This document shows positions 37,116-56,210 of a stretch of 64,000 nucleotides of DNA, one piece after another. The position numbers and the translations under genes are program-made. The notes beneath the pieces were generated by a model. The model was given only the letters and a program-made list of their open reading frames with translations. It searched no databases and was not told the DNA's origin. This DNA comes from an uncultured Planctomycetota bacterium (lineage in GTDB: Bacteria > Planctomycetota > Planctomycetia > Isosphaerales > Isosphaeraceae): positions 128,001 to 192,000 of the forward strand of contig CAWJTV010000026.1 of NCBI GenBank assembly GCA_963845755.1. The letters run 5' to 3'. How positions within the stretch are numbered: the first letter of the stretch is position 1; each line of letters begins with the position of its first letter.

Positions 37116-37384
37116 ACGGGATGAGCCATCCGACGTCCCGATGCCAGGCCACGAGAGAAACTGCATCGCAGGCGTGCAATCAATGGTGGTGGTAATGGCC
37201 GGATAAAAGATCGACACGCCGGAAGTCGATGAAGACTAAGAAGTGTCGAAAGATTGCATGACAGCGGTCCCCCGCTCTTGCCTAGAGCAGGCATTTTCAA
37301 GCTCAGGCTGATCCCACCAGCGTGCCGAAGGTGAGTTCCCGCCTGTGCGATCATTCCCACTCCCCGCACGAGAGGAACGTCGCG

Positions 37385-37777
37385 ATGCGTATGCGAGCTT
37401 ACCGCCCCGAGGTCCCCGGCTGCCTGGAAGATCGATCGCTGTTATCGAGCGTTGCGGGGCTGTCGGCCGATGCTATTGTTCTCACGCGTCGCGAGTTCAA
37501 TATGATACCCGAACAAATCCAGGAGGCCTTTCATTTCTTTCGCCAGGGCTACGGTGTTCTCCATCTTCACGACGAGATTCTTGAGGCCGTCGTGAACATC
37601 CCCTTCGGACGGGTCGATGGTCTAGCAGTCTCGATCAATGGCATCTTGAACAGGATGCAGCACGACCTCTCCGCCAAAGTCCCCCACGCCATCAGCTCGG
37701 CGCGCAACGACGTGATTGCCGTGACCCGTGCGGACGTGGAGGCCCGGGTTCAGGCCGGAGATATCGTCGTGCGGTGA
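37385..37777 (+). CDS. Planctomycete LEPRxLL-motif protein
   Basis: GAGG RBS; YRPEVPGCLEDRSLLS. Confidence 0.7.
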   Translation: MRMRAYRPEVPGCLEDRSLLSSVAGLSADAIVLTRREFNMIPEQIQEAFHFFRQGYGVLHLHDEILEAVVNIPFGRVDGLAVSINGILNRMQHDLSAKVPHAISSARNDVIAVTRADVEARVQAGDIVVR

Positions 37778-37809: not shown

Positions 37810-39268
37810 TCAATATTTCAGCACGTAGTCTGGGCTTTTGCTGAGCCGGTCCCTTGACCGGATAATAGGTGAGCGTCGTCCTCGGGTCGGCGTGGCCCGC
37901 GAAGTCCTGCAAGTCGATGATGTCCGATCCCCGCTCCCTGGCCGTGGTCAGGGCGGTGACGCGGAGCGAATGCACAGTGACGGCGGGATCGAGGCCGAGG
38001 GCGGCGACGTAGCGGCCGATCAGCTTCTCGACCGCTCGGGTAGTCATCGCCTAGCCTGGATTCCCATGGAGGCAAAAACGGGGTAGGCTACGACGCAATC
38101 CATAAACGAAGCAAAATTCGTCGAAGTGGGTTTTCCCCTGGATTTCAAGTGGTTCTGGCTTGAAACGGCTCATCGAACCGCCTCTCTCGATGTTAGGTGA
38201 TCCGTAAACTGAAAAAAGAGCATCCACGGTGTCAACTCAATGCATCCACTGTGGTGAATTCGATAGATTTGTCGCAAGAACCCCTTGTTTTCCAGGAGGA
38301 AGTGAGATTCGATCGACGAACATATCATCCATGGTGATCAAGTTAACTTAGTGGGAGACCCACCTTTAACTCTTGGAGGAGCATAACCAGTTCCGAGGCG
38401 AAAAGCTGAGTATCGCGGGCTTTTTTCCAATCATGCGGCAACAAATGTTAGCTCAATCTGCCTCCATGGGAATCGCAGGCCCTAGGGCCGGAAGCCGTCG
38501 CGGCCCATGCCTCGGGCCGACCCGGCGGCGGGGAACAGCGGCCCGGCCGGATCGTCCTTGATGCCGGGAACCGCCAGCCATTCGGCCAGCCGCTCGGCGG
38601 CCTCCAGGTGCAGGGGCGTGGTGCATTCCTTGCCACCCTTGCCGGTGACGTTGAGGATGCGGTGCTCGCCGCTTTGCTTGTAATCGCGGACGCGGAGGCG
38701 GACCAGCTCGCCGACGCGGCAGCCGGAGTAGGCCAGCACGGCGAGCATGGCCCGGTCGCGGCAATCGACCGGCGTTTGCCGCTCGAGTTTCCCCTCGGGA
38801 CCGTCGAGCAGACGTCGTCAGTCGTGTGCCGACAGGCCGACGGTCTTGCCGTCGCGGGGCCCGGCCGGTGCCTTGACGAACTTGCCGTGAACGGGGTTGG
38901 CCCTACTGTAGCCGTACGTTTGCAGGTAGGAGAACACCGACCGCAGGGCGGTCAGCTTCCGCCGTATCGAGCTATTGGTCATGCCTGCGGCGCCAGTCGC
39001 TCACGCCACTGGCTGACGTGCTCGGGGCGGATGGCAGCGAGGTGCTCGAGGGCATCCGGCGCGATGCCGCTGGCGGCGAGGAACTGGTCGAGGTCGAGAC
39101 GGTAGGCCCGGCGGGTATGGGGGAAGGGGTGCGGAGCAGCCAGGCATTGACGGCCCGACCGATGGCCTGGCGGAGATCGCCGGGCACCTGGCCGGTGAAG
39201 GCCGGGATCGGCTCGGCGGTCGCCGCCGGGGTGATGATTTGCAATTCGGTGCCCGTCTCGTCGTCCAT
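37810..39268 (-). pseudogene. Tyrosine recombinase/integrase, frameshifted and split by a MITE
   Basis: RDRAMLAVLAYSGCRVGEL, GKGGKE, HSLR, GHADPRTTLTY spread over several frames; in-frame TAG and a 426-bp insertion. Confidence 0.9.
38055..38480. mobile_element. Non-autonomous MITE inside the integrase
   Basis: Ends CCTGGATTCCCATGGAGGCA / TGCCTCCATGGGAATCGCAGGC; CCTAG on both sides; empty site visible in the paralog near 54590. Confidence 0.85.
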
Positions 39269-39309
39269 GATACCTCCCGTGTTATGCCCGCCTCGAGCGT
39301 CGGGGTTTT

Positions 39310-39337
39310 GGTTCGGATACCCCGCTTTATCCGAACT
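39310..39337. other. dif/Xer-like palindromic recombination site
   Basis: GGTTCGGATAC-CCCGCT-TTATCCGAACT (11-6-11), about 40 bp upstream of the integrase ATG. Confidence 0.6.
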
Positions 39338-39498
39338 ATAATCGACCAGAGAAAAGACGCAAGGAGAAGATGCCGGGGGGAGGGGGTAGTCCCGGCAACT
39401 CGGCTGGTCTGGTAGGGGACAACGGGATAGGATCGATGAGTGGAGGCCAGGCGGTGGCTCAAGGTTCCATCGTGGTTGAATTCGCGAGTGCCCTTCAA

Positions 39499-40266
39499 AT
39501 GCCAGATTACAACAATCCTGCCGGGCGGCTTTTCAAGGTTCTCACGGAGCTTGGTCAAGGACAGATCAAAAGCGACCAGATTGCCGCCAAACTCGGAACA
39601 TTGAGTGATTGGGAGTCGCTTCTCAAGGCGATGGTCGAGATGAGGAAAGAGTACGTGTTACTAGAAGCCGCCGTGTCCGACTTCAAGGACAACCCTTACA
39701 AGCTCGATCATTACAAGGAAGACCTCGCCCACATTAAATCGGCGATTGATGGAATCATTATTGATATAAAAAATAATCAGGTACATGTTACTCCTAACCC
39801 GCAAGCCCTTACCGCCCTGAGATACATGGCCGTTGATCTTCCGCAGGAGGAGGCGGTTACTCCGGACGAGATCGCGACGATCCGCAAGCTATGCAACGAA
39901 CTGCAAGCCGAGATCGAGAATTCACAGACGCTCAACAAGACGCTCAAGGAATGGCTCCTGGACCTCGTGCGGATGATGCGTGACGGTATTGATCGCTTCA
40001 AGATTCGGGGGAGCCGGGGCTTCAGGAAGGAGCTCTATCAGATGCTGGGGTCGATCATGGTGCATTACGGGGATATCAAGGAGGTGAAGGAGAAAGAGCC
40101 GGGAATCTGGATGAAGATGATGCAGAGCCTCGATTGGGCCTGCCGGGCGGCCGAGCGATTCGAGAAGGTGGGGAAGGCACTTCGGTGGGGCTACAAGGCC
40201 ATTGAATTCTTCTCAAGCGGCGGTGCGACCCCTCTCCAGTTGGAGGGGCCAGACGAGGCGGAATGA
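39499..40266 (+). CDS. Hypothetical helical protein, lower GC
   Basis: Long clean ORF starting MPDYNNPAGRL; TATAAT at 39337. Confidence 0.8.
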   Translation: MPDYNNPAGRLFKVLTELGQGQIKSDQIAAKLGTLSDWESLLKAMVEMRKEYVLLEAAVSDFKDNPYKLDHYKEDLAHIKSAIDGIIIDIKNNQVHVTPNPQALTALRYMAVDLPQEEAVTPDEIATIRKLCNELQAEIENSQTLNKTLKEWLLDLVRMMRDGIDRFKIRGSRGFRKELYQMLGSIMVHYGDIKEVKEKEPGIWMKMMQSLDWACRAAERFEKVGKALRWGYKAIEFFSSGGATPLQLEGPDEAE

Positions 40267-41160
40267 TTGCTACTGGTAATAGTCATCGCGTGGCCGGGCA
40301 CGCGGAGCCGCGAACGACGACCCTATGGAGGCGGGCGGCTTCAAACCGTAGCACCCTGTTTCATTGCCTCTGAACCTCGAATATACAGGTACCGAATGAT
40401 GGGGAATTACACATGATCCTTGCTACATTTCTTGAAACATGCCCGCTGTACAAATGGGTTGCCTTGGAACCGTCGAACGATGGTTCCAGATTCAAGCTTT
40501 CAGGGAAATTTCCGTCGATCAACATGCCCTGCTCGATCTGCAAGTCGAATCAAACATTTTGCACTGACAATAAAAACCCTAACAAAAATAGCATTATCAA
40601 TCTTTCAAGCTATCAATTTCTGGATTATAATTTGTATCTTGAAGTGTACGAATGTGCAAATTACCATACGTTTGCACATTGCTTCATGATAAAGGAAGCA
40701 AGGGACGGTAACTCTATTATGAAGGTTGGGCAACACCCAAACTGGTCAATTGAGGTAGAGTCTTACCTGGAAAAGGCATTAGGTAGGCACGTTAGAGAAT
40801 ATAAAAATGGATTGATTAACGAGGGCCACGGATTTGGGATCGGTGCTTTTGCCTATTATCGGCGAATTGTTGAGGTAATGATAGATGAATTATTAGCTGA
40901 TATTCTAGAACTTATACCATCTGATGATAAGCAGCATCAAGAATATCGGGAAGCCTTGGAGCGGGCAAAGGACGACCATCGGGCAGACGTGAAGATTGCC
41001 CAGGTAAAAGACCTGATTCCTGCCGTATTGCGGCCAGGGGGAGCTAATCCGCTCAAGGAACTTCACTCGGCGTTGAGTGCTGGTCTTCACGGTCACACAG
41101 ATGAGGAATGCCTTGACTTAGCAGATCATATAAGAGTGTCACTAAAATTCCTGATCGAAC

Positions 41161-42693
41161 GTAGCCGTTCACACCCCGAACAATTTGTACAGTTAGTTCG
41201 TATTACTGTATATGAGTCAGCAGCTTCCGATCCCTGAGCCACTCTGGAGCACCGTGCCCGAGGACGCGCAAGCCGCCCTCCTCGATGCCTGGAATGTGCT
41301 CCGGGATGAGATCGCCGAGTTGAAGACCACCGTGCGCGATCTCCGGGCCCGGCTCGGACTCAACTCGACGAATTCCTCCAAGCCCCCCTCTTCCGACCCG
41401 ATCGGCCTGAAACGAAAGCCGCCGACTCCGCCTTCGCGGCGCAAACGCGGCGGACAACCCGGCCATCGCAAGGCGTTCCGCGCCCTGGTCCCTCCCGAGG
41501 AGCTCCGATCGTCCACCGATCGTCGGCCCGGGGCCTGTCGTCGCTGCGGCCATGCGCTGCACGGCGAGGATCCCCACACCCTTGATCCATCAGGTCGCCG
41601 ACCTGCCCCGGATCGAGCCACTCGTGGACGAATACCGGCTGCATCGGCTCGCTTGTCCGGACTGTGGGACGACCACGTGTGCGACCCTCCCCGAGGGGGT
41701 CTCCACCAGCCACTTCAGCCCGTACACTCAGGCCGTGCTGGCGACCCTGGCCGGCGCCTACCGCCTCAGCAAGCGGCAGATCCAGCAACTCGCCGGCGAT
41801 CTGTTGGGGCTGTCGATCTCCACCGGGATGATCTCCAAGCTGGAGCGACAATCGGCCGCCGTGCTGGAGGCCCCCTATAACGAGCTGGCCGTCGCCGTCC
41901 ACACGGCGGAGGTGATCCATGCCGACGAGACCTCCTGGCGGGAGGAGCGGCGCAAGGCCTGGCTTTGGGCGGCGGTGACCGCGATGTTCACCGTCTTCAC
42001 CATCGCCCGCAACCGCACCGCCAAGGTGGCCCGAGCGGTCCTGGGGACGCACGACGGCTCGATCGCGGTGACCGACCGTTGCAGTTCCTACGACTGGATC
42101 GCCGCGGCCGGCCGGCAGATCTGCTGGAGCCATCTCCGCCGCGATTTCCAGGCGATGATCGACCGCGGCGGGGCGGCCGAACCGATCGGCCGACGACTGT
42201 TGAGGCTGTCGGATCGGTTGTACCGCTGGTGGCATCGCCTCGAGGCCGAGCGGGTGGATCGGGGGCGATTCCGCGCGACGATGACCCGGGTGAGGCGCGA
42301 GGTCAAAGCGGCGCTGGACGACGGTGCGCGGTGCGGATGTCCGCGGACGCGCGGGATGTGCGCCGAGATCCTGCGCGTGGAGGGGAGCTTGTGGACCTTG
42401 CGCGGGTCGAGGGGGTGCCTCCCGACAACAATGCGGCGGAGCGCCGCCGAGCGGCACGCCGTGATCTGGCGGCGGATCAGCGGGGGGACCGACAGGCGCA
42501 GGGGAGCCGGTTCGTCGAGCGGATGTTGACCGTGGTGGCCACGTGCCGGCAGCAGGGACGAGACGTGCTGGGCTACCTGACATCGTGCTTTGAAGCGGCT
42601 CGGAGCAACCAATCGATCCCCTCCCTCGTCCCGGTGACTCCACCAAAGATCGAGGCCGCCTAATTCCAGCTATCACGCCCCATGAACGGGTAC
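41161..42693 (+). mobile_element. IS66 family insertion sequence (single-ORF, ISBst12-like), 1533 bp
   Basis: Ends GTAGCCGTTCA / TGAACGGGTAC; 8-bp target duplication GATCGAAC at 41153-41160 and 42694-42701. Confidence 0.93.
41212..42663 (+). CDS. IS66 transposase with frameshifts
   Basis: NSTNSSKPPSSD, GGQPGH, HADET, QICWSHLRRDF, PPDNNAAER. Confidence 0.93.
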
Positions 42694-42886
42694 GATCGAA
42701 CAGATCAAGCGAACAAAGCAAAATGCTTCGGAGTATGCCGAAAGTATCAAGGCTATGCAGGCGAAGCGGTAGCGGGCAGAAAAGCCAAGCTAGATTCGAG
42801 CAGCATAATCCCCTTTAGTGGGATGCCACTGCACGGCAGCAGTCAAGTGGCAGGTGGGGGTAGGACGGTGGCTTCGCTGCCAAGCG

Positions 42887-43291
42887 TCATTCGGGCGGAA
42901 ACTCGCCTGCCTCGATCAGCAGCTCGCGGAGTTCGACGCGGTACTCGTCGTTGATGTGGAGCAGGGAGATAGTGACGCGGCCGATGGCGGTGCGGCCGAC
43001 CAGGTAGGGGCCTTCCCAGCGGAAGTGTTTCGTCCATTTGTGGCGGCGGGGGTTGAACAGCGGCGTGATCTTGCGTGTCTGCCGGTCGAAGCTGGTCAGG
43101 TCCGAACCCTTGAAGGAATTGCAATAATAGCAACTGAGGCATAGGTTGCTGGCAATGGTCGGCCCGTGGTGCTTGCGGGAGCGGGTATGGTCGATTTCAA
43201 AGGTGGCGTCGTCGGCCGCCTGGGGCATCTGGCAATATTCGCAACGGCCTTGTGCCCGTTGCCAGACCAGCCGCGTGAGTGCCGCGTCCAT
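42887..43291 (-). CDS. HNH endonuclease
   Basis: CEYC, IDH, NLCLSCYYCNSFKG, LFNPR. Confidence 0.92.
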   Translation of the reverse strand: MDAALTRLVWQRAQGRCEYCQMPQAADDATFEIDHTRSRKHHGPTIASNLCLSCYYCNSFKGSDLTSFDRQTRKITPLFNPRRHKWTKHFRWEGPYLVGRTAIGRVTISLLHINDEYRVELRELLIEAGEFPPE

Positions 43292-43298
43292 GAGCGGA

Positions 43299-43598
43299 TC
43301 AGGAATCCGTTCGGGTTTTGAGCTTGATGCCGAGCGTGCGGCGGGCCTTGGACTTCAGGATGGAAAGCAGGGTGGTCGCCTTGGCGAAGGCGTGCATTTC
43401 CTTCTTCTCGCCGGGCGTCAAGGCGTCGTCCTGATTCCGCACGGCCAGGTCGTGCATGCGGGCCTTGTCCCGCTCGCTGACGTGGAGGTCGAGGATGTAG
43501 CGGGCGACATCCTTGGGGAACGGGCCATCGCCGTTGCCCAGGAAGCGGACAAGGATCGTCACTTCGTTGTCGCTCGCGTGGTTGGTAGCAGTGCTCAT
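43299..43598 (-). CDS. Small hypothetical protein upstream of the HNH gene (candidate antitoxin)
   Basis: AAGGAA RBS; stop lies 7 bp before the HNH start. Confidence 0.8.
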   Translation of the reverse strand: MSTATNHASDNEVTILVRFLGNGDGPFPKDVARYILDLHVSERDKARMHDLAVRNQDDALTPGEKKEMHAFAKATTLLSILKSKARRTLGIKLKTRTDS

Positions 43599-43628
43599 GT
43601 GCATTCCTTTTTGATAGCGGTTAGCCTG

Positions 43629-43657
43629 AGATTACCACGGCGGGCGGGTTTTGCCAA
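43629..43657 (-). promoter_or_regulatory. Sigma-70-type promoter
   Basis: TTGGCA-17 bp-TAATCT with TG extended -10. Confidence 0.7.
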
Positions 43658-43678
43658 GCCGGGGCGGCAGGGCGGTTG

Positions 43679-44749
43679 CTAGGTCAGATTCCTCCGGTCG
43701 GCCAGGGACTTCTGCAAAGCATCCATGGCGATGAAAGCGGCGTGGAAGCAGAAGGGGCAGACGGAATAAGAGCCTTGCACCGGAGCAATGGCGTTGCGGA
43801 ATCCCTCCATCTCCTTCGCATAGTAAGTAATCAGGTTGAACGTTTGACCGTAGTGGCCGACGCCGCATAGGGGGCATAACGTATCCGCCAGTTGCTCCAA
43901 GGGCTTGTAACCCTCTACGATCAAGCGACGGACATCATATGCCCCTTCCAGTGCCCTGTAGGTATTGTCGTAGCGTTTCGCCGCGTCGTATCACACGGTA
44001 TACTCAAAAATATGATGTAAATGCCACGCCATGCGTAGGTCGGGCAGTTCCTTGAACAGCGACCGGCCGTTGAACACGGGGCTTTCCCGGTCGAAAGCGA
44101 TCTTGTTGGTGATCATCGACCAGAGGATTTTCCCGGCCGAGTAGAGATCGGCCCGGATGTCCGGTTCCTGGCGAGAATGACCGGAACATTCGAGGGGCCG
44201 GTAATGCGGCGTGCCAACGGCTTCCTCGGTCAAGGTGACCGCCTGGCCGTCCTCAATGTGGCACAGGCCAAAGTCGATGAGCATAATCCGCCCGGTGGGA
44301 GTGACCAGCACGTTGGCCGGGCTTAAATCCCGGTGCACGATGCGTTGCTTCTCGCACGCGGCCAGGGCCTCAACGATCTGGATGAAGCCATCGGCCGCTT
44401 TGAGCGGGTCGCGAAAAAAGGGGTTGGTGCTTCTGTCCATCCGCCTACGCAGCGATTCGGCTCCATCGACATATTCCATGACGTAATATTGAAAGTCGTC
44501 CTCCGGCTGCGAGTGCTGGACGACCTTGACGATGCCGGGATGATCGATGCGGGTGAGAGCGTCTAATTCCCCCCGGAACCGCTCGCGGGCCTTGGAGCTT
44601 CCTTTGTCGTTGAGAAACTTGAAGGCGAACTTCGGGCCATCCGGTTCGCTGGCCCGCACCGCGAGAACCACATCGCCTTGACCACCATGGCCAAGCTGGC
44701 CTTCCAGCTTCCAACCCACCTTCAACGCTTGGGTTGACTTCGAGGCCAC
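43679..44749 (-). pseudogene. Compact Ser/Thr kinase with C-terminal Zn ribbon, internal TGA at 43991-43993
   Basis: GHGGQG, HRDLSPAN, DFG; ORF 43679..43924 (CPLC...CPFC) is in frame beyond the stop. Confidence 0.8.
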
Positions 44750-44880
44750 GTCCGTCACTCCGGTAAAAGGTTGCGGCGACTGGGATAACGTCAATACCTG
44801 CTACGCACTGTTCATTGTATCCAGCCGTGCACCGGTGGGCAATGCGAATCGAGTTCTCTCCGACTGAGGCATCTCGCCAT

Positions 44881-45146
44881 GGGGTTCCGATAGCAGCGGA
44901 GCAGAAAACAACGAACTTGTCTCGAGGCCCCAGTTCCACCGGGTTTTCCTTCTCGAAACCCGTCTCCGAGGGCTTGATTTGAGAACTCGCATTCGAGAAT
45001 GGTTATCGAGAACCAAGATCCTGTGGGATCTTGCGATCGCGACGTAAGTGCTTGACAGTTCTTGAAAACCATCGTTTGCGAGAAGGTCTCTGAACAACCG
45101 TCATCTGGAAGATCGTTGTTTTTTGCTCGGTTACTATCGGAACCCC
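44881..45146. mobile_element. 266-bp MITE with GGGG-initiated terminal inverted repeats
   Basis: 34-bp arms at 44881-44914 and 45113-45146 match 30/34; no target duplication. Confidence 0.75.
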
Positions 45147-45290
45147 AAATAATCCGCCATCGTCAGCGGCGACTCGCGGATGATGGTCTCGGAGAGAGGT
45201 TCCCCCTTGATGGTGACCGGCTGGTCGTCGGGATCGTCGAAGTCGGCGGCCGTGTCCGGGAGCTGGCTCATCAGGCCGATTTCCAGCGCG
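45147..45290 (-). pseudogene. Remnant of an antitoxin C-terminus and PIN toxin start
   Basis: 45162-45280 is almost identical to 52522-52639; followed by MADY, cut by the MITE. Confidence 0.8.
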
Positions 45291-45303
45291 TGATGCCGCG
45301 GCT

Positions 45304-46429: not shown

Positions 46430-46618
46430 GGAAACCCTCCCAGCTCAGCACCACGGTCAGGTCCGTGAGGTCGAGGGGCCGGTCTGAATTCGAGCGGAAG
46501 GGACATCGTCCCGGCGCGCAGACCGGGCGCACCGGGACCGTCCGGCCGATGGGCCACACGACCCTTCGACCGCCATCAAGAGCAACCTCATCGAGACAAG
46601 ACCGGTTCGACGGGCGGC

Positions 46619-49600
46619 CTATGGTCCCGCTGGCTTCGGGGCCAGCCGCAGGGCGACCGGCCAGAAGTCCTCACCGCCAAAATAGGGCGAGATTTCGGGG
46701 TCCTCAGTCCAGAAGATGCCGTAATCCGTCACACCGTGCACAGGTGTGTCGTTATCGATAACCCCGATGTTCACCAGGAATTCGCTGCCGCTCGACGCCG
46801 GGACATACTCCGAGCCGTCTCGCGTGTCGATCAGGGCCAATGGGATCTCGAACTCAATGATGTAACCGTCGGGAATGCGGGAGGTGCCCACTATCCAACC
46901 GGCGCCGGTGAGGTCACTCGGCTCGGCGTGGCGATGGCCATTCGCATCGGCTACGAGAGAGAATCCCTCGCGATTGCCCACGTGACCGGTCAAGTAGGCG
47001 GAGACGGGCGTCAGGTCATTGGCCACCTGATCCCCGTTGATGAAGAGTTGGACCCCGTCGTTCCATTCGGGAGCGTTGGCATCCATTTCGCCGATGTCGA
47101 CGAACTGGTCGCGAACCCGAAAGGCGAAAAAGAGCGACTGGTCGGTGTAAGCCGTGAAGACTCGGACGCTCAGATCGTCGGGCGTCTTGGAGTGCGACTT
47201 GCCCAGCCGGTGAGGCAATATAGGCCCATGATAAAGGCGACCGGGGTTGGCATCCCCTTCGAACGTGATCTCGATGCCGGGTCCGTACTCTTCGCCATCG
47301 ATCCGGCCGTCGGCGACGGGGCTCATGGCCTGGTACGGCACTTCGATCGTGAAGGTGGCGGGTGGGCGATCGGCCGGGCTGACCCCCGGGGCGAGGCCCG
47401 GCCACTGCCTGAGCAGGAGCTGAGCAATGCCACCCGTCTCGATGACGTCTCTCTCCGTTGGGAGCTTCTTCCGGAGCCGAAGGGCCTCGACCCGGACCTG
47501 CTCCAGCAGGGGGCGCCTCGGCGAACCGGCCGTGGTCGCGGAGCACCAGCGCCAGGTGAGTGCGGATCCAGAGGCCGGACGGGTCATCGACAGGGATCAG
47601 GCGGGGCCTCAGGGCCTCGACCCGCTGGAACTGAGACAAGGCCGCATCTCGGTGATCAGACGCGTAAAGGTAACGAGCCAGATCGTTCCGGACTTCCAAG
47701 GCTTGCCGGCTCTCGGGCAAGGCATCGACCAGGGCGATGGCCTTCTCGGGTTGCCCGAGCATGCCGAGCGTATCGGCGAGCCAACCGGTCAGGGCGATCG
47801 TGGACTCGGCCTCCGGTCCCAGGTCGCGGCGCGACCGATCCCGCATCCCCTCCAGGGTCCTCCGTGTCTCCTCCCAGTGTGCGCGGTCCTCCAGAGCCGA
47901 ACGGAAATAGGCCCCGATCGATTGCCGAGCGAACGGATGCGCCAGGCCGAGGACGCGCACGCGGCCCTCCATGATACGCCGATTCATGTCACTCGCCCGG
48001 TCGAGCTTCCCCAAGGTGAAGTATATTGCGGCGAGGGTGTTCATCGCGCTGAACGTGTCGGGGTGATTCGGCCGATTCCGGAGTTCGATGGCGATGACCG
48101 GCTCGAGGAGCGCCGCCGCCTTCTCGAGGTTACCGACACCACTCCAGATCCGGGCGAGGTGGTTGATTACCTCAAGGGTCCTGGGATGCTCCGGGCCCGA
48201 CACCCGCTTCCTGACCGCCAACAGGTCCTCGAGGCGGGCCCGGGCCTTGTCTTGGTCCAGGCCGGCGAGGGCCGCTGCCAGGACGCGCATCGTCTGGAGG
48301 GTCTCCTCATGCTCCGCTCCCAGCGCCTTGCGGGCGGTCGCCAAGACGGGGTCCAGAAGTGTACGGGCTTTCTCGGATTGACCCTGTCGGTAGAGGGCCC
48401 AGCCCAGGGCATTCTGGGCGGCGATCGTCTCGGCGTGCTCCGGGCCGAAGCCAACCAGTCGCAGCTCGACGGCCCGCCGCGCGAGTTGTTCCGCCTTCCG
48501 ATACTGGCCCAGTTCCTCGTAGGCTTGCCCCAAGGCATGGCGGATCGCCGCCTCGATCAGACGCCGTTCGGCGAATATCTTGGTGACCTTCTCCTCGGCT
48601 CGGGCCAGGAGCTGGTCCACCGTCGGCACCGTCCCCTGGGCCCGCGACGGGCTGGCGGCGCCGATCACGTCGTTGATCAGGAAGTCGACGACCTCGCCGG
48701 CCTCGGTGGCGCGGCGGTCCGCCTCCTGGCGGGCGAGATCGGCCCGGTTCCGCTCCCGGGTCATCTCGACCCGTGCGGTCCGTTCGGCCTCCAGCCGGCT
48801 CTCAGCCAGCTCCTCGGCGCTCATCGCCCGGATGGCCTCCCAGGTGCTCACCGCCGTGCCGACGACCAGCGCCGACGCCACCACGGCCGCCGTCGCCAGC
48901 ACCGCCCGGTTCCGCCGCGCGGCCTTCCGCAGGCGGTACGAGGCCGACGGCGGCCCGGCCTCCACCGGCTCATGATCCAGGTAGCGGCGCAGGTCGGCCG
49001 CCAGGGCGTTGGCCGTCTCGTACCGCCGGTTGCGGTCCTTCTCCAGGCACTTCATCACGATCCAGTCCAGCTCGCCGCGCACGGCCCGGTCCAGGTGACG
49101 AGAGTCGGCCTTGCGATTGACCGAGACGGTCGTCCACGTCGTGGCGAGTGAGCTCAGCCGCGTACTCGGCTTCGGCGGCTCTTCCTCGCGGATGATCCGC
49201 CGCATCTCGTCGAAGGCCGCCGTGCGAAACGTCTCCTGGTCGAACGGGGTCGTGCCGGTCAATAGCTCATAGAGCAGGACGCCCAGGCTGTAGATATCGC
49301 TGCGGGTGTCCATGTCCATGCCCGAGAGGTCCGCCTGCTCCGGGCTCATATACAGGGGCGTGCCGATGAACTGCCGGAACGTGGTGTAGATCGTCCGCTC
49401 GGTGAGCGCCGCGCCGGTGGCCTTGACCACGCCGAAGTCGATGACCTTGGGTACGGCGGCGCCGTCGATGACCGTCACCAGGATGTTGGAGGGCTTGAGG
49501 TCGCGGTGGATGATCCCCTTCTGGTGCGGCGTGCTGCACGGCACGGCAGACCAGGACGAACAGCTCGAGCCGCTCGGGGATGGGGAGTTGCTCGCGGTCG

Positions 49601-50103
49601 CAGTACTCGGTGATCGGGATGCCGCGGACCAGCTCCATGACGATATAGGGGTGGCCGGATTCGGTGGCCCCGGCGTCGTAGACGCGGGCGATGTTGGGAT
49701 GGTCCATCATGGCCAATGCCTGGCGCTCGGCCTCGAACCGGGCGATGACCTGCTTCGTGTCCATGCCCGGTTTGATGATCTTCAGGGCCACTTTGCGGCG
49801 GACGGGGTGCATCTGCTCGGCCAGGTAGACGACTCCCATGCCCCCCTCGCCAATCTGCTCCATCAGCTTGTAGGGGCCGACGGTTGAACCCACCGGCTTG
49901 GCCGGACCGTGCTCAAGGCTGATGGTCGGGGATGCCAGGAATTGGCCCACGCGATCGTGCGCGGCAATCAGCGACTCGACCTGATGCCTCAATTCGGTGT
50001 CGGCCGCGCACGCACGGTCCAGATAGGAAGCCCGTTCGTCAGCCGAGGGGATCTCCATGGCCTCGCTGAAGATGGCTTCGATGCTGGCGATGTACACAGC
50101 CAT
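46619..50103 (-). CDS. Ser/Thr kinase with TM, TPR repeats and C-terminal CBM9/DOMON-like domain; frameshifts near 49530 and 47510
   Basis: GEGGMGVVY, HRDLKPSN, DFG; G.EHP.TL TPR repeats; DGRIDGEEY...LFFAFRVRD...GYIIEFEIP. Confidence 0.9.
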
Positions 50104-50196
50104 GGCGAATCTACCCCATCGTTACGAGGATTCCTTGGCGCTCTACAAGCCAGTGCGAAAAAACGCCTCGGATTGGCTCATCGGCTCTGAAAGAAG

Positions 50197-50775
50197 TCAG
50201 ACGCTCGCGGTTGGCTCGTCACGTTCGACTTCGCGAAGCAACCAGGCCCGTGCGAAGGTCCACCAGCGCTTCGCGGTTGCCGGAGAGATCGCCAGGACCT
50301 GGGCCGACGCATCGATGGACAGCCCGGCGAAGAAGCGGAGTTTGACCAACTCTGCCTTCTGGGGGTCCTCTGCGGCGAGCCGGGTCAGGGCCTCATCCAG
50401 GGCGAGCCACTGCTCGGGAGGGGCCTCGTCGACGAGATCCAGACCTTCGAGGCTCACCCGCACCCGTTCGCCGGAGTGCTTGACCGCCCGCTTCCGCCGG
50501 GCGTTCTCGATCAAGATTCGGCGCATGGCCTCGGCGGCCGCTCCGAAGAAATGGCCGCGGCTGTTCCAGCCGAATGCGGCGTCACCTCCGCCCACCAACC
50601 GCAGGTAGGCCTCGTGCACCAGAGCCGTTGCCTGGAGCGTTTGCCCGGGCTTCTCCTGGGCGAGCCTCTGGGCGGCCAGCCGGCGCAGCTCCTCGTAGAC
50701 CAGAGGAAGGAGCTTCTCCGCCGCCTGAGGGTCTCCCTGCTCGATTGCCGACAGGATGCAGGTTACGTTCGTCAT
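50197..50775 (-). CDS. ECF sigma factor, TIGR02999 type
   Basis: LLPLVYEELRRLA, TLQATALVHEAYLRL, HFFGAAAEAMRRIL, W.FARAWL. Confidence 0.95.
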   Translation of the reverse strand: MTNVTCILSAIEQGDPQAAEKLLPLVYEELRRLAAQRLAQEKPGQTLQATALVHEAYLRLVGGGDAAFGWNSRGHFFGAAAEAMRRILIENARRKRAVKHSGERVRVSLEGLDLVDEAPPEQWLALDEALTRLAAEDPQKAELVKLRFFAGLSIDASAQVLAISPATAKRWWTFARAWLLREVERDEPTASV

Positions 50776-51178
50776 CGATGTGGACACCTGTGTCCGTCCG
50801 GCTCTTGTCCCAGCCCGGCCCCGTTGCGATGTGGCGTCCCATTCCGGGCTGATCTCGGCGCGAGCGGCTTGTAACCAGTCTACCCCCCGCCTCTCAACCG
50901 GGATAGTCTCCGAGCATGCTCAATCCGCATGGGACACGACTCGGACCGATCTTATCCGGATCAGAAATGAAGGCCGTGCTCCCGCCAGCGATTGCTCCCA
51001 ATACTCGTGCGGACCCCCGCCCTCGGAGGGCGGCGGATTTCATGGCCGATCCGTATTAGCCTAGAAGCCTGCGATCCTTCGTTGCTGCCCTCTCGTCAAG
51101 CCCGCGTGGTCCGGACGTCCCGTAGACGACTGCCGGGGTCCGGTAGCCCAGAGATTGGTGTGGCCGCGCGTGGTTGTA

Positions 51179-51300
51179 AGAGTCTGTTCCCGAAGGGCAG
51201 GTCCGGGCGAGCGGGGGGCGTCAGCCCCCTGTCCGGTGAGCGACGGACCTCCAAGACAGCGGGCTGGCGCCCCCCTGCTCGCCCTTCCGGAACCGACTCT
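51179..51300. repeat. MITE/REPIN-like element, copy 1
   Basis: AGAGTCTGTTCCCGAAG...CTTCCGGAACCGACTCT around a GGGCGAGCGGGGGGCGTCAGCCCCCTG inverted pair. Confidence 0.8.
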
Positions 51301-51393
51301 AAGAGGGGAAGCGAATCGGGTGGGCCTCACCTCGATGAATCGAGGCTCGACCTACCCTACAGCCTAGACATGAATATTAGTATCAACCGCCCA

Positions 51394-51873
51394 TTAAGGT
51401 TCGGACTTGGCGGGCTCGAGGACGACGAGTATGTGGCCCGAGCCTTCCTTCGACGACGCCTCAGTAGGCCGATCGTCGCCCGGGCGGGCCAGGCAAATCG
51501 TGAGCCTCTTTTCCTCGAGTATGAGAATGCCTTTAAACACCTTGTCCTTGTCTCTTCCTTGCTTGGGCGTGAAGTCGATGTGAATTGGCTTCTTGCTCGT
51601 ATCGACCTTGTACGTGCCCTCCTGCTCCTCGCCGTTATGCTCCTCGAGAAGGAACTCGCCTTTGGCCAATCGGACTTTGTCCCCCTTCATGTCTTGTTCA
51701 TCACCGTTGACCGTTCCCGAGACAACCATCCATTGACCTTCGAACTTGGCCGTCTTCTCCGTTTTCACCTGCGTCACGGGAATCGGATCGGAGTTGCCGC
51801 CTTGGGAGCTCGGTGCATTCGCGACCGCAAGTATCCCTGCCACCAGACCACCCGCCATCCGGAACCGCTGCAT
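51394..51873 (-). CDS. TIGR03067 domain protein
   Basis: Signal peptide; FEGQW, GTYKVDTSKKPIHID, GIL.LE..RLTIC...RP; GGAGG RBS. Confidence 0.85.
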   Translation of the reverse strand: MQRFRMAGGLVAGILAVANAPSSQGGNSDPIPVTQVKTEKTAKFEGQWMVVSGTVNGDEQDMKGDKVRLAKGEFLLEEHNGEEQEGTYKVDTSKKPIHIDFTPKQGRDKDKVFKGILILEEKRLTICLARPGDDRPTEASSKEGSGHILVVLEPAKSEP

Positions 51874-52061
51874 GGTAAAACCTCCGAAAACGACAAGGCT
51901 GTGCCACTGTCTCGTGTCCTGGTTAACATGGCAACCCAATGCCATGCCCAAGCAGATGGATCATTCGTAAAGCGTCGCCGTTCTCCCACCATCTGTGAGC
52001 GACTTCGAGGGCCAGGGTGAGTTCCCTGTCCCTTCTCGCCAGCCATTCCTCAATGGTCTAA

Positions 52062-52182
52062 GAGTCTGTCCCAGAAGGGCGAGCGGGGGGCGTCAGCCCC
52101 CTGTCCGGTGAGCGGACGGCCCTCGAAGACAGGGGGCTGACGCCCCCCGCTCGCCCGGACCGGCCCCTTCTGGGACAGACTC
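52062..52182. repeat. MITE/REPIN-like element, copy 2
   Basis: GAGTCTGTCCCAGAAG...CTTCTGGGACAGACTC around the same inner inverted pair. Confidence 0.85.
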
Positions 52183-52395
52183 AAACAGATCGGATGGTCG
52201 GGGACCGCTCCTTGGCGCCAATCCGTGGCCGACATTTCCAACTGTAAGGGAAAACTTGTCGGCTCACAGGCCAACTTGTCTATCTGGTCTTTCGCTGACG
52301 ATGACTTGTTCTTGGGCGTCCGCCCCAAGAAACTCCCGTTATCTTAACCTGGGTCAGCAAACCAACGGGCAATAGCCGGCCTGAACGCTGCCGGA

Positions 52396-52521
52396 TCAGC
52401 CGCGGGCGATATAGAGCGTGTGCCCTGCCTTGACGCGAGTCAAAGTACGGACCCAGGGGCTCTCTGTTTCATCGACATGGCGTTTGACCAGGCCGGTGGA
52501 GTCGAAGAAATAGACCGCCAT
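52396..52521 (-). pseudogene. Truncated PIN/VapC toxin
   Basis: MAVYFFDSTGLVKRHVDE; stops after 41 aa. Confidence 0.75.
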
Positions 52522-52522
52522 G

Positions 52523-52858
52523 TCAGCGGCGCTCGCGGATGATGGTCTCGGAGAGAGGTTCCCCCTTGATGGTGACCGGCTGGTCGTCGGGATCGTCGAA
52601 GTCGGCGGCCGTGTCCGGGAGCTGGCTCATCAGGCCGATCTTCAGCAGGTGTTGGTCGAATTCCGCCTCGGTCATCTTCTTCTTCGGCGGAGCGTCCTTG
52701 TGGCGCTTGACGCGTTTGGCCGGTGCGGCTTTTCCCGGCGTGTCCTGGCGGAGCCGGGTGAGGGCGTCGCGGATCACGTCCTCCTCGCGGGCGTAGCGTC
52801 CGGCGCGCACCGCGTCGTGGACGAACCGCTCCAGGTCTTTAGATAAATGAATCTTCAT
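52523..52858 (-). CDS. ParD-like RHH antitoxin
   Basis: IHLSKDLERFVHDAVRAGRYAREEDVIRDAL; C-terminal GEPLSETIIRERR typical of VapB-type tails. Confidence 0.85.
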   Translation of the reverse strand: MKIHLSKDLERFVHDAVRAGRYAREEDVIRDALTRLRQDTPGKAAPAKRVKRHKDAPPKKKMTEAEFDQHLLKIGLMSQLPDTAADFDDPDDQPVTIKGEPLSETIIRERR

Positions 52859-52879
52859 AGTATGATGTTACTGTGGCTT

Positions 52880-52908
52880 AGATTACCACGACGGCGGGCG
52901 TTTGCCAA
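52880..52908 (-). promoter_or_regulatory. Sigma-70-type promoter
   Basis: TTGGCA-17 bp-TAATCT with TG extended -10. Confidence 0.7.
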
Positions 52909-52974
52909 GTCGTATCGACCGGGCGGACGGTCAGGCATCGAGCTGGGGGAGGCATATCAAGGTGTCGCCGGTCA

Positions 52975-53002
52975 ACCGAACATACATCAACTTATCAGAT
53001 CT
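52975..53002. other. dif/Xer-like site
   Basis: ACCGAACATAC-ATCAAC-TTATCAGATCT; right arm matches that of the 39310 site at 9/11. Confidence 0.5.
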
Positions 53003-53020
53003 GGCAGCGGAAGCGGTCGG

Positions 53021-53428
53021 CTATAGCAGGATCGCAAACCCTTCATACGTTAAATGATTATCATATATCAGGATTTCGCTGATCCCTTCCCGCCGCATTG
53101 CCCCCATCGAAATGCAGTCGGTCAGGCTGTATCCCTTGTCGGGGCGGGCTTGGTAGAGGGCGAATCCGGAAAGGAACGTCTGGTTAGACTGCGGATGAAT
53201 CGAGACCGCCGGGTCAGTATGGAGGTCCCGGACAAGATCAACCGCTTCCTGCCGAAGCAGGCGACCGGCCTCGGAAAATGCGTTCAATACCCCGGTCAAG
53301 ACTTCTTCGGTCGTGACCAGGTGGCATCCCGCGAGGGTACGGCTGGCTTGCACGGCGGCTTAGTGCCATTGGTCTTTGCGGTGAGTGATCGCAATCCAAT
53401 AGAGCGTATCGACGAAGATTCGTCTCAT
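53021..53428 (-). pseudogene. PIN/VapC toxin with internal TAA at codon 23
   Basis: MRRIFVDTLYWIA...DQWH*; DKGYSLTDCIS. Confidence 0.88.
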
Positions 53429-53745
53429 GCTGTAGGCCGCTTCGGCGTTCCATAAAGGTAAAGGTCATGCTGCCCGGCGAGGTCGGTGGGAAGTTTGTCC
53501 CATTCTTCGTCGGGAATGGCGGCAGATCTCTCCAGAATTCGCTCCCAGATTGGCTTCCGTGGCAAGGGGGTAGGCTCCTCGTTGGCTGCTGCCTGCTCAG
53601 GCACGGCATGGGCCTGTTCGTCCTTCAGGCGTTCGAGTAGAAGCGAAGCGGCTTTGGTCATAGCGTCATCGACCGACGCGAAATGTCCGCTATGGACGGC
53701 GGCCTGGATCGAACGTTCGATATGTGGAGGTAAATGGATAGTCAT
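53425..53745 (-). CDS. ParD-like RHH antitoxin
   Basis: IHLPPHIERSIQAAVHSGHFASVDD; LPTDLA.QHD.YLYG.PK tail; ATGA overlap with the PIN gene. Confidence 0.85.
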   Translation of the reverse strand: MTIHLPPHIERSIQAAVHSGHFASVDDAMTKAASLLLERLKDEQAHAVPEQAAANEEPTPLPRKPIWERILERSAAIPDEEWDKLPTDLAGQHDLYLYGTPKRPTA

Positions 53746-53766
53746 TAAGTTATGCTCCTTTGCCCT

Positions 53767-53795
53767 AGATTAGCATGGCCGGAGGTGTTCGCCAA
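53767..53795 (-). promoter_or_regulatory. Sigma-70-type promoter
   Basis: TTGGCG-17 bp-TAATCT with TG extended -10. Confidence 0.7.
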
Positions 53796-53891
53796 GTGGA
53801 GCGGTCAGGCGGGCCGATCGAAAATAACCGCCGCCGCTTCGGGTAAGTATGGTGTTATGTTCCCATTCCACGGGGAAATTAACGTCTTTCG

Positions 53892-54281
53892 TCAATTCGG
53901 CACGAGCAGCGCAGGGTCTTTCAGAGGGGGGTCGGGTTCGACGGAACGCCAAGGATGGACGGCGGCGGCCTCGTATTTTCGCTGGAGCTGGTCCCAATAG
54001 TTCGACCAATAACGCGACAGGTCGGCCTCGCGGCGTTGGTTTGCTGCCGAGTCCTTCCAGGACAGATCGCCCTGGCGGATCTTCTCCTCGGCGTCATCCC
54101 TCATCAGTTCGTGGAGGTCCGCCGCGTCCGCACATGCCCTGGCCGTCGCCTCGTAGAGCGCCGCCCGTCGAAGACAGGAGGTTCGCCATCGCCAGCCGCG
54201 AAAACCAGCGAGTGCGAAGGCCACCAGGACCACCGAGATCATGGTTTGCCTTACCGTGAACCGCACGCGTCGCAACCGCAT
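53892..54281 (-). CDS. Planctomycete hypothetical protein
   Basis: MRLRRVRFTVRQTMISV N-terminus and KYEAAAVHPW..V.PDPP C-terminus. Confidence 0.7.
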   Translation of the reverse strand: MRLRRVRFTVRQTMISVVLVAFALAGFRGWRWRTSCLRRAALYEATARACADAADLHELMRDDAEEKIRQGDLSWKDSAANQRREADLSRYWSNYWDQLQRKYEAAAVHPWRSVEPDPPLKDPALLVPN

Positions 54282-54355
54282 GGGAAGCGGCCTCGAAAGG
54301 TGACAATGGCCCGGGTCAGGCACACCGCCGACGTGGGTATCGTCGCCGGTGCGGG

Positions 54356-54741
54356 TCGTATTTGAGCACGTAGGCCAGGCTTTTGCTGAGGCGGTCGCGG
54401 CCGCGGATGTCAGTCAGCGTCGTCCTCGGGTCGGCGTGCCCGACGAAGTCCTGCAAATCGATGATATCCGATCCCCGCTCGCGGGCGGTGGTGAGGGCGG
54501 TGACGCGCAGCGAATGGGCGGTGACGTTGGGGTCGAGGCCGAAGGCGGCAACGTAGCGGCCGATCCGCTTCTCAACCGCGCTGGTCGTCATCGCCTCGCG
54601 GCGGAAGCCGTCGCGGTCCTGGCCACGCGGCGAGCGGGCGGCGGGAAACAGCGGCCCGGTCGGATCGTCCTTGATGCCGGGCACCTGGCCTGTGAAGGCC
54701 GGGATCGGGTCGGCGGTGGCGGACGAGACGATCTCGCTCAT
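54356..54741 (-). pseudogene. Internally deleted paralog of the tyrosine recombinase
   Basis: PIPAFTGQVPG joined directly to IKDDP; HSLR and GHADPRTT retained, catalytic Tyr position reads Asp. Confidence 0.9.
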
Positions 54742-55163
54742 TGGACCTCCGGCAGTAGCGTGAGCGTGCGGTTCCTCTTGAGGCGGATGACCGAGAAACT
54801 CCGCCGGTCGGTGGTGAAGACGGTGCGGATGTTTTCCCGTTCGGCGAGGTGAGCGAGGGCGGCGTCGGCGAATTGCAGCCCGACATCCTCATAGCGACGC
54901 AGGATGGCGGCGATGGCGGGGAGGTCATCGGCATTCAGGGGCAGGATGTCGAACAACCCGGCGGCCCGGGCGTCGTTGAGGCGGTCGGCGGGCCGTGGGT
55001 AGCGGCGGAGAATCCAGGCGGCTTCGATGAGCACCGGCCAGCAGGTCAAAAGCGGTGGCGACAGGCCGGCGAGGGTTTCGACGCATCGGCGATGGTAAGC
55101 GTCGTTCGCGGCCAGCAAGGCGACCAGGGGACCGGTGTCGAGCAGGATGCAGCGGTCAGTCAC
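54738..55163 (-). CDS. PIN/VapC toxin
   Basis: LLDTGPLVA, TCWPVLIEA, FADAAL, FTTDRR. Confidence 0.9.
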   Translation of the reverse strand: MTDRCILLDTGPLVALLAANDAYHRRCVETLAGLSPPLLTCWPVLIEAAWILRRYPRPADRLNDARAAGLFDILPLNADDLPAIAAILRRYEDVGLQFADAALAHLAERENIRTVFTTDRRSFSVIRLKRNRTLTLLPEVQ

Positions 55164-55407
55164 GCCCGAAGCCTTCCATGTGGGCGGGATGGATGCTCAG
55201 GTCGGACGGGCCGCCCTTGAACACGCCGATGATCCCGGCCCGTTTGGCGATGTCGTGGCACGATTCGCCGGGCATCCGCTTTTGCACGTGCTCCTCCAAT
55301 GCCTGCCGCACGATCTCGGACGGGTTGCCGTTTTTCTCGCGGGCCTCGGCTTCCAGCGCTTGTTTGAGCCGGAGATCGACCCGGACGTTGATGCGTTCCA
55401 TGAGCAT
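55156..55407 (-). CDS. RHH/CopG-type antitoxin
   Basis: RINVRVD...SEIVRQALEE; PSDLS...HMEGFG tail; overlaps the PIN start; GTCAGACA direct repeats upstream at 55429 and 55450. Confidence 0.85.
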   Translation of the reverse strand: MLMERINVRVDLRLKQALEAEAREKNGNPSEIVRQALEEHVQKRMPGESCHDIAKRAGIIGVFKGGPSDLSIHPAHMEGFGRD

Positions 55408-55706
55408 TCTCCATCGAATTCATCGTGTGTCAGACAGCATACCAACACCGTCAGACAAAGCCGACCCTTTCATGCACGCGTGCGCCTGCCGATCGTTGGT
55501 TCGGATCGCCCGCGGCGTTCTCCGGACGAATCGCCCAAGCCGGCGTTTTGCCGACCCGTCCGCAGGTTGGTTTGCTGGGTGCGTGCAACGACGGATGTCA
55601 ATTCTCTGGTAAAGGAAAAAAATGCCCTTTCTTTTCCCGTCCCCTGATTCGACAATCAGGCTACGGCGTTGACGGCACGTATCCTCGGATTCTTGAGGTC
55701 GATGCG

Positions 55707-56210
55707 ATGAACTTGCGGACACGAAAGGCATCCTGGTTCGTTTCGGGCTTGCTCCTCTTTGCCGTGGTGTCGGCCGGCTTCGAGGTGGTCGTGGCTCAGC
55801 CTAAGAGTGAGACTTCAAGTCCGGCGCTCGACACGAGCGAGGCAACTTTTGAATTGGTGGGCGAAAATAAAATTGTAAATATAAACAATATTGCTTATAC
55901 GAGCGATGAGGACAGATTGTTCGATATTTACTTTGCATGCTCATCCTCGAGAGGAGAGGATCCTTTGAGGTTAACCGACGCAAAGGATGTAATGCACGCG
56001 AAATCATATTTTAACGACGAGAAACGGTACGTCAAACACTTTGTAAAATTGAACAAGTACTGTATCAATGTGCGAAATATTGCGTACATCGAATCCAAGG
56101 GTGATTCAGTGATTGTAAGATTCAACGCTCGGATCTCGGATGCATTTGTGAAGGTGACGTTATTTGGTGTTGATGCAGAAATGTTTAGGAAGAAAATGCG
56201 AGAGTTTTAA
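55707..56210 (+). CDS. Exported hypothetical protein, AT-rich, internal duplication
   Basis: GAGG RBS, signal peptide; IVNINNIAY and CINVRNIAY repeats. Confidence 0.75.
   Translation: MNLRTRKASWFVSGLLLFAVVSAGFEVVVAQPKSETSSPALDTSEATFELVGENKIVNINNIAYTSDEDRLFDIYFACSSSRGEDPLRLTDAKDVMHAKSYFNDEKRYVKHFVKLNKYCINVRNIAYIESKGDSVIVRFNARISDAFVKVTLFGVDAEMFRKKMREF

Follow-up and report, generated by a model that had tools for sequence, protein, structure and literature searches.

The 64,000-nucleotide window analysed here, positions 128,001–192,000 of contig C26 of the Isosphaeraceae genome G000 (14.27 Mb, 49 contigs), carries between about 34 and 56 kb a group of toxin–antitoxin (TA) genes, broken Xer-like tyrosine recombinases and short intergenic sites, mostly built of two 11-bp arms around a 6-bp spacer. 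Comparison with related genomes indicates that these sites are a real class of recombination sites, several of which lie at exact points of gene exchange, and that they do not form an alternating array of the pdif type. The sites appear to mark swaps of TA and defence genes between related soil bacteria. We judge it slightly better than an even chance that the region is a composite island put together by tyrosine-recombinase crossovers, at 28-bp sites that share the 11-6-11 form but differ in specificity, served by recombinases that each have their own palindrome together with host XerCD, and with genes exchanged by fusion and resolution of replicons. The window itself is a decayed, fossil copy, in which the two recombinase copies are broken, as are most of the sites. 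Below, C denotes a contig of a genome, G a genome of the family, L a retrieved locus, and capital letters (P, Q, S and so on) arm types; C|D marks a host-type site with one XerC and one XerD arm.

Recombination sites in the window

The original prediction listed six dif/Xer-type sites in the window, at 39310, 42798, 51363, 52322, 52975 and 53836, and a weaker one near 34862. All six strings occur exactly at these positions, and all are intergenic with respect to the called genes. We scored candidate sites with a mixture model of arms and spacer, trained on 112 sites of other genomes and with eight contigs of G000 as background. Background rates were computed for 6-bp spacers, and 5-bp and 8-bp spacings were ranked within the window by arm score. 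A first weight matrix, seeded on G000 itself, drifted to AT-rich matches and was replaced by the model trained on other genomes.

Site 39310 ranks first in the window, with 0.2 equal-or-better matches per Mb. It is followed by 55612 (rank 2, 1.1 per Mb), 52975 (rank 3, 1.9 per Mb) and 42798 (rank 5, 4.9 per Mb). These four 6-bp sites score 13–26 bits, and the best match outside 34–56.3 kb reaches 8.9 bits. The matches at ranks 4 and 6 (40577 and 39766) lie inside AT-rich open reading frames (ORFs) and probably arose by chance. Among 5-bp and 8-bp spacings, the top arm scores of the window belong to 34862 and 53836, respectively. On the other hand, the string at 52322–52349 ranks 13th (113 per Mb, about seven expected per window) and that at 51363–51390 ranks 147th (1637 per Mb), both at background level. 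The former, read on the minus strand, has a fitting spacer polarity and an insignificant score and is a remnant at most; the latter is unsupported and adjoins a dispersed repeat. Searches for homologous flanks gave nothing useful for 51363 and 53836, and found none for 52322. Of the six predicted sites, 39310, 42798 and 52975 are well supported under this model, 53836 is a damaged site, and 51363 and 52322 cannot be told from background.

Site 39310 (39310–39337, minus strand) is a P-type palindrome directly upstream of the local recombinase, at the junction between the recombinase module and the module that begins with the ORF at 39454; no sigma-70 promoter match is found at it. At 42798–42825 (minus strand), 62 bp beyond the end of an HNH nuclease gene, is an S-type site in which one arm has gained a single base; it can be aligned with the S-type sites found in G039, G098 and G043. 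The weak site is real but damaged: at 34862–34888 (minus strand) we find a Q-type site with an F2b-type left arm and a spacer one base short, in which the arm and two to three bases beyond it agree with those of intact sites found in G025, in G071 and on contig C29 of G000. Three further sites or remnants had been overlooked. An orphan D arm at 53815–53825 (minus strand) stands where relatives have a full D|x site, as seen in an alignment with two G033 copies and G039. A remnant P-type site lies upstream of a ribbon-helix-helix (RHH) antitoxin promoter at about 55490 (approximately 55487–55520, minus strand), and a degenerate Q-type site at 55612–55639 (minus strand) precedes a 167-residue ORF. 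The site at 53836–53865 has an 8-bp spacer, arms resembling the P and D/F3 types, and an ambiguous orientation.

The last four predicted sites had been described as alternating D|C, C|D, D|C, C|D. This pattern breaks down, because the next D arm, at 53815, is orthologous to a site of relatives and has the same direction as the D arm of 52975. All window sites with a readable polarity lie on the minus strand.

Homology breaks at the sites

Homology with relatives breaks off at 39310, 52975, about 55490 and 55612, as the original prediction expected of copies of a module. The dif-like site at 52975–53002 (minus strand) faces, with its D arm, the antitoxin promoter on its left. Through antitoxin, promoter and D arm the window is about 90% identical to the same-genus genome G046, and this identity ends at the spacer, which makes the site an exact synteny breakpoint. 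At 39310, G071 has the same site and the same downstream ORF (88% identical) but carries an RHH promoter in the place of the recombinase, and G029 shares the recombinase side. Near 55490, homology to G031 and G071 reaches the arm and spacer, where both genomes have intact sites. At 55612, 88% identity to G044 begins at the site, and the 167-residue ORF behind it (55707–56210, plus strand) shares 79% identity with the gene that follows the intact site in G044. In these comparisons the site is conserved while the genes on its far side differ.

We extended the comparison to 182 site regions, where 17 pairs have a homologous flank abutting the site on one side only and four have such flanks on both. 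Among 333 internal alignment ends, 61 fall in the 44-bp site bin against about 28 expected, an enrichment of only about 2.5-fold, from pairs that are not independent. The outcome that would have spoken against the original prediction, breakpoints that fail to coincide with sites, was thus not what we observed.

Palindromic sites and their recombinases

The local recombinase belongs to a clade that we call F1. A palindrome of the 39310 type lies directly upstream of the gene in seven of nine intact or near-intact F1 homologues whose loci include the 5′ region; in L064 the site is degenerate, and L063 has lost it. A core pattern with a purine-rich spacer, derived from nine genomes, has 138 matches in 62 of the 121 family genomes, 109 of them in the other 53. 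Summed over the tables, the reversed control gave 20 matches and a 7-bp-spacer control 14. The purine-rich spacer is nearly identical across arm types and close to the dif spacer.

The upstream arm type follows the recombinase clade on a quick tree of 63 recombinases: the P type goes with F1 and two Q types with F2b, F3 has a separate arm type and F2a several. The catalytic Arg-Lys-His-Arg-His-Tyr set is invariant in eight aligned proteins of 328–394 residues, which lack an arm-binding domain, and intact 344-residue F1 relatives retain the full catalytic residues. Intact recombinases occur at L046:799–1833 (F1), in L292 and L295 (F2b), in L286 and L288 (F2a) and in L295 (F3). We compared F1 with the XerC and XerD profiles (TIGR02224 and TIGR02225) and obtained 129 bits against a cut-off of 335 and 125 against 330, respectively. 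Since it falls below both cut-offs and stands apart from the host pair on the quick tree, we rejected the local recombinase as an XerC or XerD orthologue. It was likewise rejected as an integron integrase (IntI), with 51 bits against a cut-off of 265. Outside the window, G000 has on C3 a gene that we take to be IntI-like.

In G000, seven of the 14 sites of at least 20 bits and eight of the 23 of at least 16 bits lie within 10 kb of an F1, F2 or F3 gene or fragment, stretches that make up 1.4% of the genome. F2-related enzymes occur on 118 plasmid records. In five proteobacterial plasmid regions with a related recombinase, four have one palindromic site, in one case 5.4 kb from the gene. In L288 (11975–15284, genome G118), an F2a recombinase gene is followed directly by a long prokaryotic Argonaute gene.

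Site arrays in related genomes

To describe the arrays, we surveyed 66 large loci, many of which were chosen because they hold a site or core pattern. They contain 118 distinct sites, comprising 59 symmetric, 23 hybrid, 26 partly classified and ten C|D sites; an excess of symmetric over hybrid sites is expected if like recombines mostly with like. One of the hybrids that join a D arm to a mobile-type arm is found in G033 (L420:12697). Arrays of three to seven sites are common (L074, L290, L292, L293, L295, L302 and L421). Under the strict pattern, neighbouring sites face the same way in 19 of 19 cases within 15 kb and in 22 of 25 within 50 kb. The wider model gives 37 of 50 same-facing pairs of mobile neighbours and seven of 11 dif–mobile pairs. 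The architecture proposed for the window, that of pdif modules, is not supported by these loci: most sites are palindromes with clade-specific arms, C|D sites are few, and neighbours are mostly direct.

The layout between sites was tallied by hand for the P and Q types. Downstream of F1 in 12 loci, the next site is of the Q type in seven, the R type in two and the S type in one, and none was found in two. Nine loci have a Q site upstream of F2b, and in five of these a P site stands at the far side. The window shows the same P-to-Q layout, running from 39310 through the recombinase and its cargo to 34862, and the unit beginning at 39310 probably has its other end at 34862. The cargo between the two sites (35381–37777, plus strand) consists of a DUF1559 gene, a TauE gene and a 130-residue ORF, the last of which is, together with the 3′ end of the recombinase, 90% identical in G037.

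A second array of G000, at C29:384498–388608 (L004), combines three strong sites with a TA pair and with F2 recombinases that are broken. We also notice that arm types T, V and W occur together in four loci of three genomes (L290, L302, L303 and L288), mostly with no recombinase in the retrieved stretch.

Host-type dif sites

An asymmetric dif-like pattern, derived from G000, is found in 92 of the 121 family genomes with 167 matches, mostly as a single copy, and its reversed control gives none. From this distribution we infer that the pattern is a candidate dif consensus for the family. Site 52975 is the only one of the six predicted sites in which both arms fit the consensus at a 6-bp spacer (9/11 and 9/11); 53836 fits at 7/11 and 8/11, but its spacer is 8 bp. 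Site 52975 and the remnant at 53815 are probably substrates of XerCD, whose genes we presume, from sequence, to be the XerC-like gene on C34 and the XerD-like gene on C33. The best candidate for a chromosomal dif is found on C41, at a distance of about 16 kb from a stretch with homology to the DNA beside the same-genus site, which argues, weakly, against the window being the dif locus.

Small replicons of the family carry extra dif-like sites. Those of G090 (L283:8180–10906 and L279:9376–10246) have host-type direct repeats around a HigBA pair and around a single gene, as well as an inverted host-type pair around a SMI1/KNR4 gene, and these come nearest to true pdif modules in the family. In G000, C40:96669–131793 (L001–L003) contains four clustered dif-like sites and an intact F2a recombinase, which is flanked by an inverted site pair with complementary spacers. 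The site at C24:7800 is identical to that at C40:96669, with 66 bp of flank in common.

TA modules and defence cargo

The original prediction placed the sites at the boundaries of TA modules. We retrieved 58 loci homologous to the two TA regions of the window (52200–54320 and 42700–45140), and only seven of them have a site within about 1.5 kb, two of the eight sites at these loci being members of the training set. TA modules are therefore not site-bounded in general. A family of antitoxin promoters gives a more specific picture: in five of 18 copies a site follows the promoter motif at a distance of 53–82 bp, and two control intervals gave 0 of 18. These counts come from a relaxed pattern, as the strict one matched one copy only. 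When the three copies of the window are set aside, four of 15 have a site, and two further G033 copies have one. For HigBA homologues, one of 14 loci has a promoter-near site, of another type. A site thus accompanies some TA lineages but is missing from most copies, and with 51 of the 58 loci and 13 of the 18 promoter copies site-free, TA pairs must also spread by themselves.

In relatives, the genes between sites include a CBASS (cyclic oligonucleotide-based antiphage signalling system) cyclase with a phospholipase (L290), PDC-S02 (L074), PDC-M45 (L289), PDC-S28 (L288), PDC-M23 with AbiE (L291), and many TA pairs. The CBASS, PDC-S02, PDC-M45 and PDC-S28 loci are complete. The modules carry their own promoter regions, and their genes point either way. 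Of 172 called ORFs, the cargo scan covered 79 with Pfam and 22 with PADLOC, chosen by eye, and the cargo counts do not amount to a rate because the scanned ORFs were hand-picked.

Decay of the window copy

The F1 recombinase of the window (37818–39268, minus strand) is a pseudogene with frameshifts, an internal stop and an inserted 430-bp miniature inverted-repeat transposable element (MITE) at 38051–38480. The insertion is accompanied by a short target duplication; 19 other copies in the genome are 92.6–99.3% identical, and the element seems to have been active recently. A second F1 copy (54316–54741, minus strand) has an internal deletion across a 10-bp microhomology and is coupled to a PIN gene. 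The intact RHH–PIN–recombinase layout is present in G031 and G043. Three toxins of the window are truncated, stopped or frameshifted.

Four indels, in and just after an IS66 element, separate the assembly from a short-read contig, which spans 42798 without a substitution or listed change. The frameshifts of IS66 may therefore be assembly errors or differences between copies, and one-base defects elsewhere may be assembly errors as well, because the short reads show indels against the assembly. Small indels between short-read contigs and the assembly are found at 41572, 42399, 42444, 42495 and 42765.

Proposed mechanism and alternative explanations

In the composite island that we favour, host-type C|D sites such as 52975 and 53815 would be cut by XerCD, whereas each palindromic type (P, Q, S and others) would be served by one mobile Xer-like clade, encoded directly downstream of its own site and comparable in its role to a plasmid resolvase or cointegrase. 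Two replicons with common site types may fuse at one site and separate at another, and the DNA between them would be swapped. Such a natural cassette exchange would keep the sites and replace the genes between them. The common purine-rich spacer would set the polarity and permit occasional crossovers between types, giving rise to hybrid sites. The site family, the pairing of arms with clades, the bias in orientation, the breaks at sites and the TA and defence cargo are observed; the assignment of enzymes to sites, the fuse-and-resolve route and any present activity are what we infer from these patterns. The earlier idea of module shuffling by the host Xer system or by the local recombinase thus survives in part: both site types are present and synteny breaks at them, but the pdif form does not hold and the local enzyme is broken.

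Several observations weigh against the composite island. The local recombinase cannot drive the array today, because it is a pseudogene. Recombination was not observed: the contigs of two soil runs contain no joint at any site, although, with low cover and small shares of the stretch, this absence by itself speaks neither for nor against. The pairing of arms and clades rests on a quick, unfinished tree and is a matter of consistency rather than proof, because kinship alone predicts such a pairing. More distant F1 relatives in other planctomycetes mostly lack an array and have no more than a single upstream site. There are exceptions to the orientation bias, with inverted neighbours in 13 of 50 mobile–mobile and four of 11 dif–mobile pairs. 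To these we add the many site-free TA homologues and antitoxin promoters, the limited enrichment of breakpoints among dependent pairs, and the choice of many surveyed loci for their sites.

A wider form of the composite island seems possible, though we hold it only tentatively: Isosphaeraceae may possess a multi-recombinase platform, in which slots between orthogonal sites swap defence and TA genes between plasmids and the chromosome, and XerCD and the mobile enzymes share hybrid sites. About a dozen Xer-derived recombinases would, under the same doubtful reading, have diverged in arm specificity while keeping one host-dif-compatible spacer.

An integron-like array working by excision is unlikely in our estimate. 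Here a relaxed mobile recombinase would read the inner arm and spacer, excise circles and reinsert them elsewhere, in keeping with the prevalence of direct orientation, the almost identical spacers, the 23 hybrids among 118 sites and the direct-repeat dif-type sites around a HigBA pair and a single gene on a G090 replicon. Free cross-recombination would, however, scramble the arms, and half of the sites are symmetric; a P|Q hybrid is absent from the site lists though P and Q often bound the same unit. Moreover, the enzyme is no integron integrase, and the contigs of the two soil runs, at their low cover, contain no circle. Somewhat less probable still is tandem accretion, by which each site would only be the resolution site and operator of one small recombinase element, and pile-up and decay would leave element ends as breakpoints. 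The single palindromic site in four of five proteobacterial plasmid regions, the recombinase fragments in many arrays and the site-free TA homologues are as this explanation expects. It accounts poorly for recombinase-free segments (CBASS, PDC-S28, single genes) placed cleanly between two sites and for the same site having different far-side genes, and pile-up leaves the common spacer polarity and the hybrids unexplained.

The model of the original prediction, an alternating C|D and D|C pdif array worked by host XerCD alone, we regard as improbable, even though 52975 is a good dif-like site at an exact breakpoint, small replicons of the family have additional dif-like sites, G090 has one inverted pair around a single gene, and 53836, when read with an 8-bp spacer, would be inverted relative to 52975. 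Only one of the six predicted sites fits both arms at a 6-bp spacer, the D arm at 53815 points in the direction of 52975, and C|D sites account for only ten of the 118 array sites. A symmetric site cannot load XerC and XerD on different arms. Chance resemblance, that is, AT-rich promoter or terminator DNA picked out by eye, explains 51363 and probably 52322; as an account of the region as a whole it is very hard to credit, given the family-wide counts against controls, the conservation in relatives and the base-exact breakpoints, and for 39310, 52975 and 55612 it is already refuted.

Relation to known systems

The composite island shares several features with Acinetobacter pdif modules: modules edged by 28-bp sites of 11-6-11 form, the spacer as the place of crossover, TA pairs among the cargo, and arrays on both plasmids and chromosomes. 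Exchange of these modules by cointegrate formation and resolution has been proposed (PMC13141974), and module islands on chromosomes are described (PMC12907356), as far as the available parts of these two papers go. In the same parts, every Acinetobacter site is C|D, the sites alternate, XerCD is the sole enzyme and spacers are diverse. Here, by contrast, we find mostly palindromes, a dozen arm types tied to mobile recombinases, mostly one-way orientation and near-uniform spacers.

Two other systems have a palindrome beside a simple tyrosine recombinase. According to the accessible part of the report, IntA of Rhizobium etli p42a, the enzyme of the attA–attD system, forms plasmid cointegrates at a palindromic site (PMC4928290). 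This site lies 108 bp upstream of the intA gene and has a 7-bp centre. IntA resembles the enzymes described here in being a simple tyrosine recombinase with an upstream palindrome, its inner arms resemble the P type, and it fuses and resolves plasmids. It differs in the 7-bp centre and in having one site per replicon, and arrays or cassette swapping are not described in the accessible text (PMC4928290). Orthology to IntA was considered and rejected, with only 27–28% identity over 188–215 residues. Cre-type recombinase/site pairs and engineered recombinase-mediated cassette exchange (PMC10250229) offer, in what is available of that source, a palindrome beside the recombinase gene, orthogonal specificities, and exact replacement by two heterospecific sites. 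Their sites are 13-8-13 and were mined singly as tools, in contrast to the dif-like 11-6-11 sites found here in natural mixed arrays.

The sites also recall integrons, in which a tyrosine recombinase is accompanied by arrays of mostly one-way sites that separate small genes with accessory, TA and defence functions. Unlike integrons, the present arrays have no IntI, appear to use short cores of the double-stranded type instead of attC hairpins, and contain modules with their own promoters and genes in either direction.

Planctomycetes are absent from the available portion of the main text of a survey that deals with the Xer sites at which IS1202 elements insert (10.1101/2022.12.17.520857). The classification of tyrosine recombinases names no group for these enzymes in the part at hand (PMC8138268). 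A dif prediction of 2011 failed in the single planctomycete genome tried, according to the section consulted (PMC3025954). Our literature search, which covered neither supplements nor subscription papers, found no description of such planctomycete arrays. The window and its relatives would thus represent an apparently undescribed variant of dif modules, with several recombinases and with defence cargo. This would extend dif-module-like shuffling to Planctomycetota, with many self-encoded recombinases and their own palindromes in place of one host pair, and would suggest a testable route for the assembly of defence islands. It would also yield about a dozen candidate orthogonal pairs of recombinase and 28-bp site, together with a candidate dif consensus for the phylum. 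Relatives hold intact arrays (for example L074, L290, L292, L295 and L421), as opposed to the fossil of the window.

Other features of the region

At the left end of the region, Pfam matches and reading frames identify a frameshifted HigB-like (Gp49) toxin followed by an HTH_37 antitoxin (34000–34694, minus strand), whose promoter side points towards 34862. The antitoxin frame continues into a transglutaminase-like domain, forming an ORF of 397 residues (33136–34329) that is probably a deletion fusion. Between 39310 and 42798 lie two AT-rich unknown ORFs (39454–41237, plus strand), a short fragment of an F2-type recombinase at 40291–40324, and the IS66 element (approximately 41159–42690, plus strand), which has about ten copies in the genome.

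Beyond 42798, the HNH nuclease and a small upstream partner form a TA-like pair (42887–43598, minus strand), with no site at the promoter in the window copy. A truncated Ser/Thr kinase gene follows (43991–44749, minus strand); its G043 homologue lies between two sites. Further along is an element of about 270 bp (44880–45147) whose inverted ends measure 39 bp and which has homologues in many genomes of the family. This element adjoins a duplicated 3′ fragment of an antitoxin gene (45147–45295), which is 94% identical to 52508–52654.

The TA genes near 52975 are a ParD-like antitoxin with a PIN toxin cut to 41 residues (52396–52858, minus strand), the intact C40 homologue of which is a PIN protein, and an antitoxin with a toxin that contains an in-frame stop (53021–53745, minus strand). 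The latter toxin gave no Pfam match, and we assume it to be PIN-like. An RHH antitoxin and PIN toxin pair occupies 54738–55401 (minus strand).

No tRNA gene was found in the window or on C26. A GC-rich palindromic repeat with up to about 150 copies in the genome occurs at 51195–51366 and 52057–52180, and a second dispersed repeat ends at about 51366; both repeats flank a TIGR03067 gene. Three non-coding 30-bp repeats lie at 31452–31575, with 5–14 homologues elsewhere in G000.

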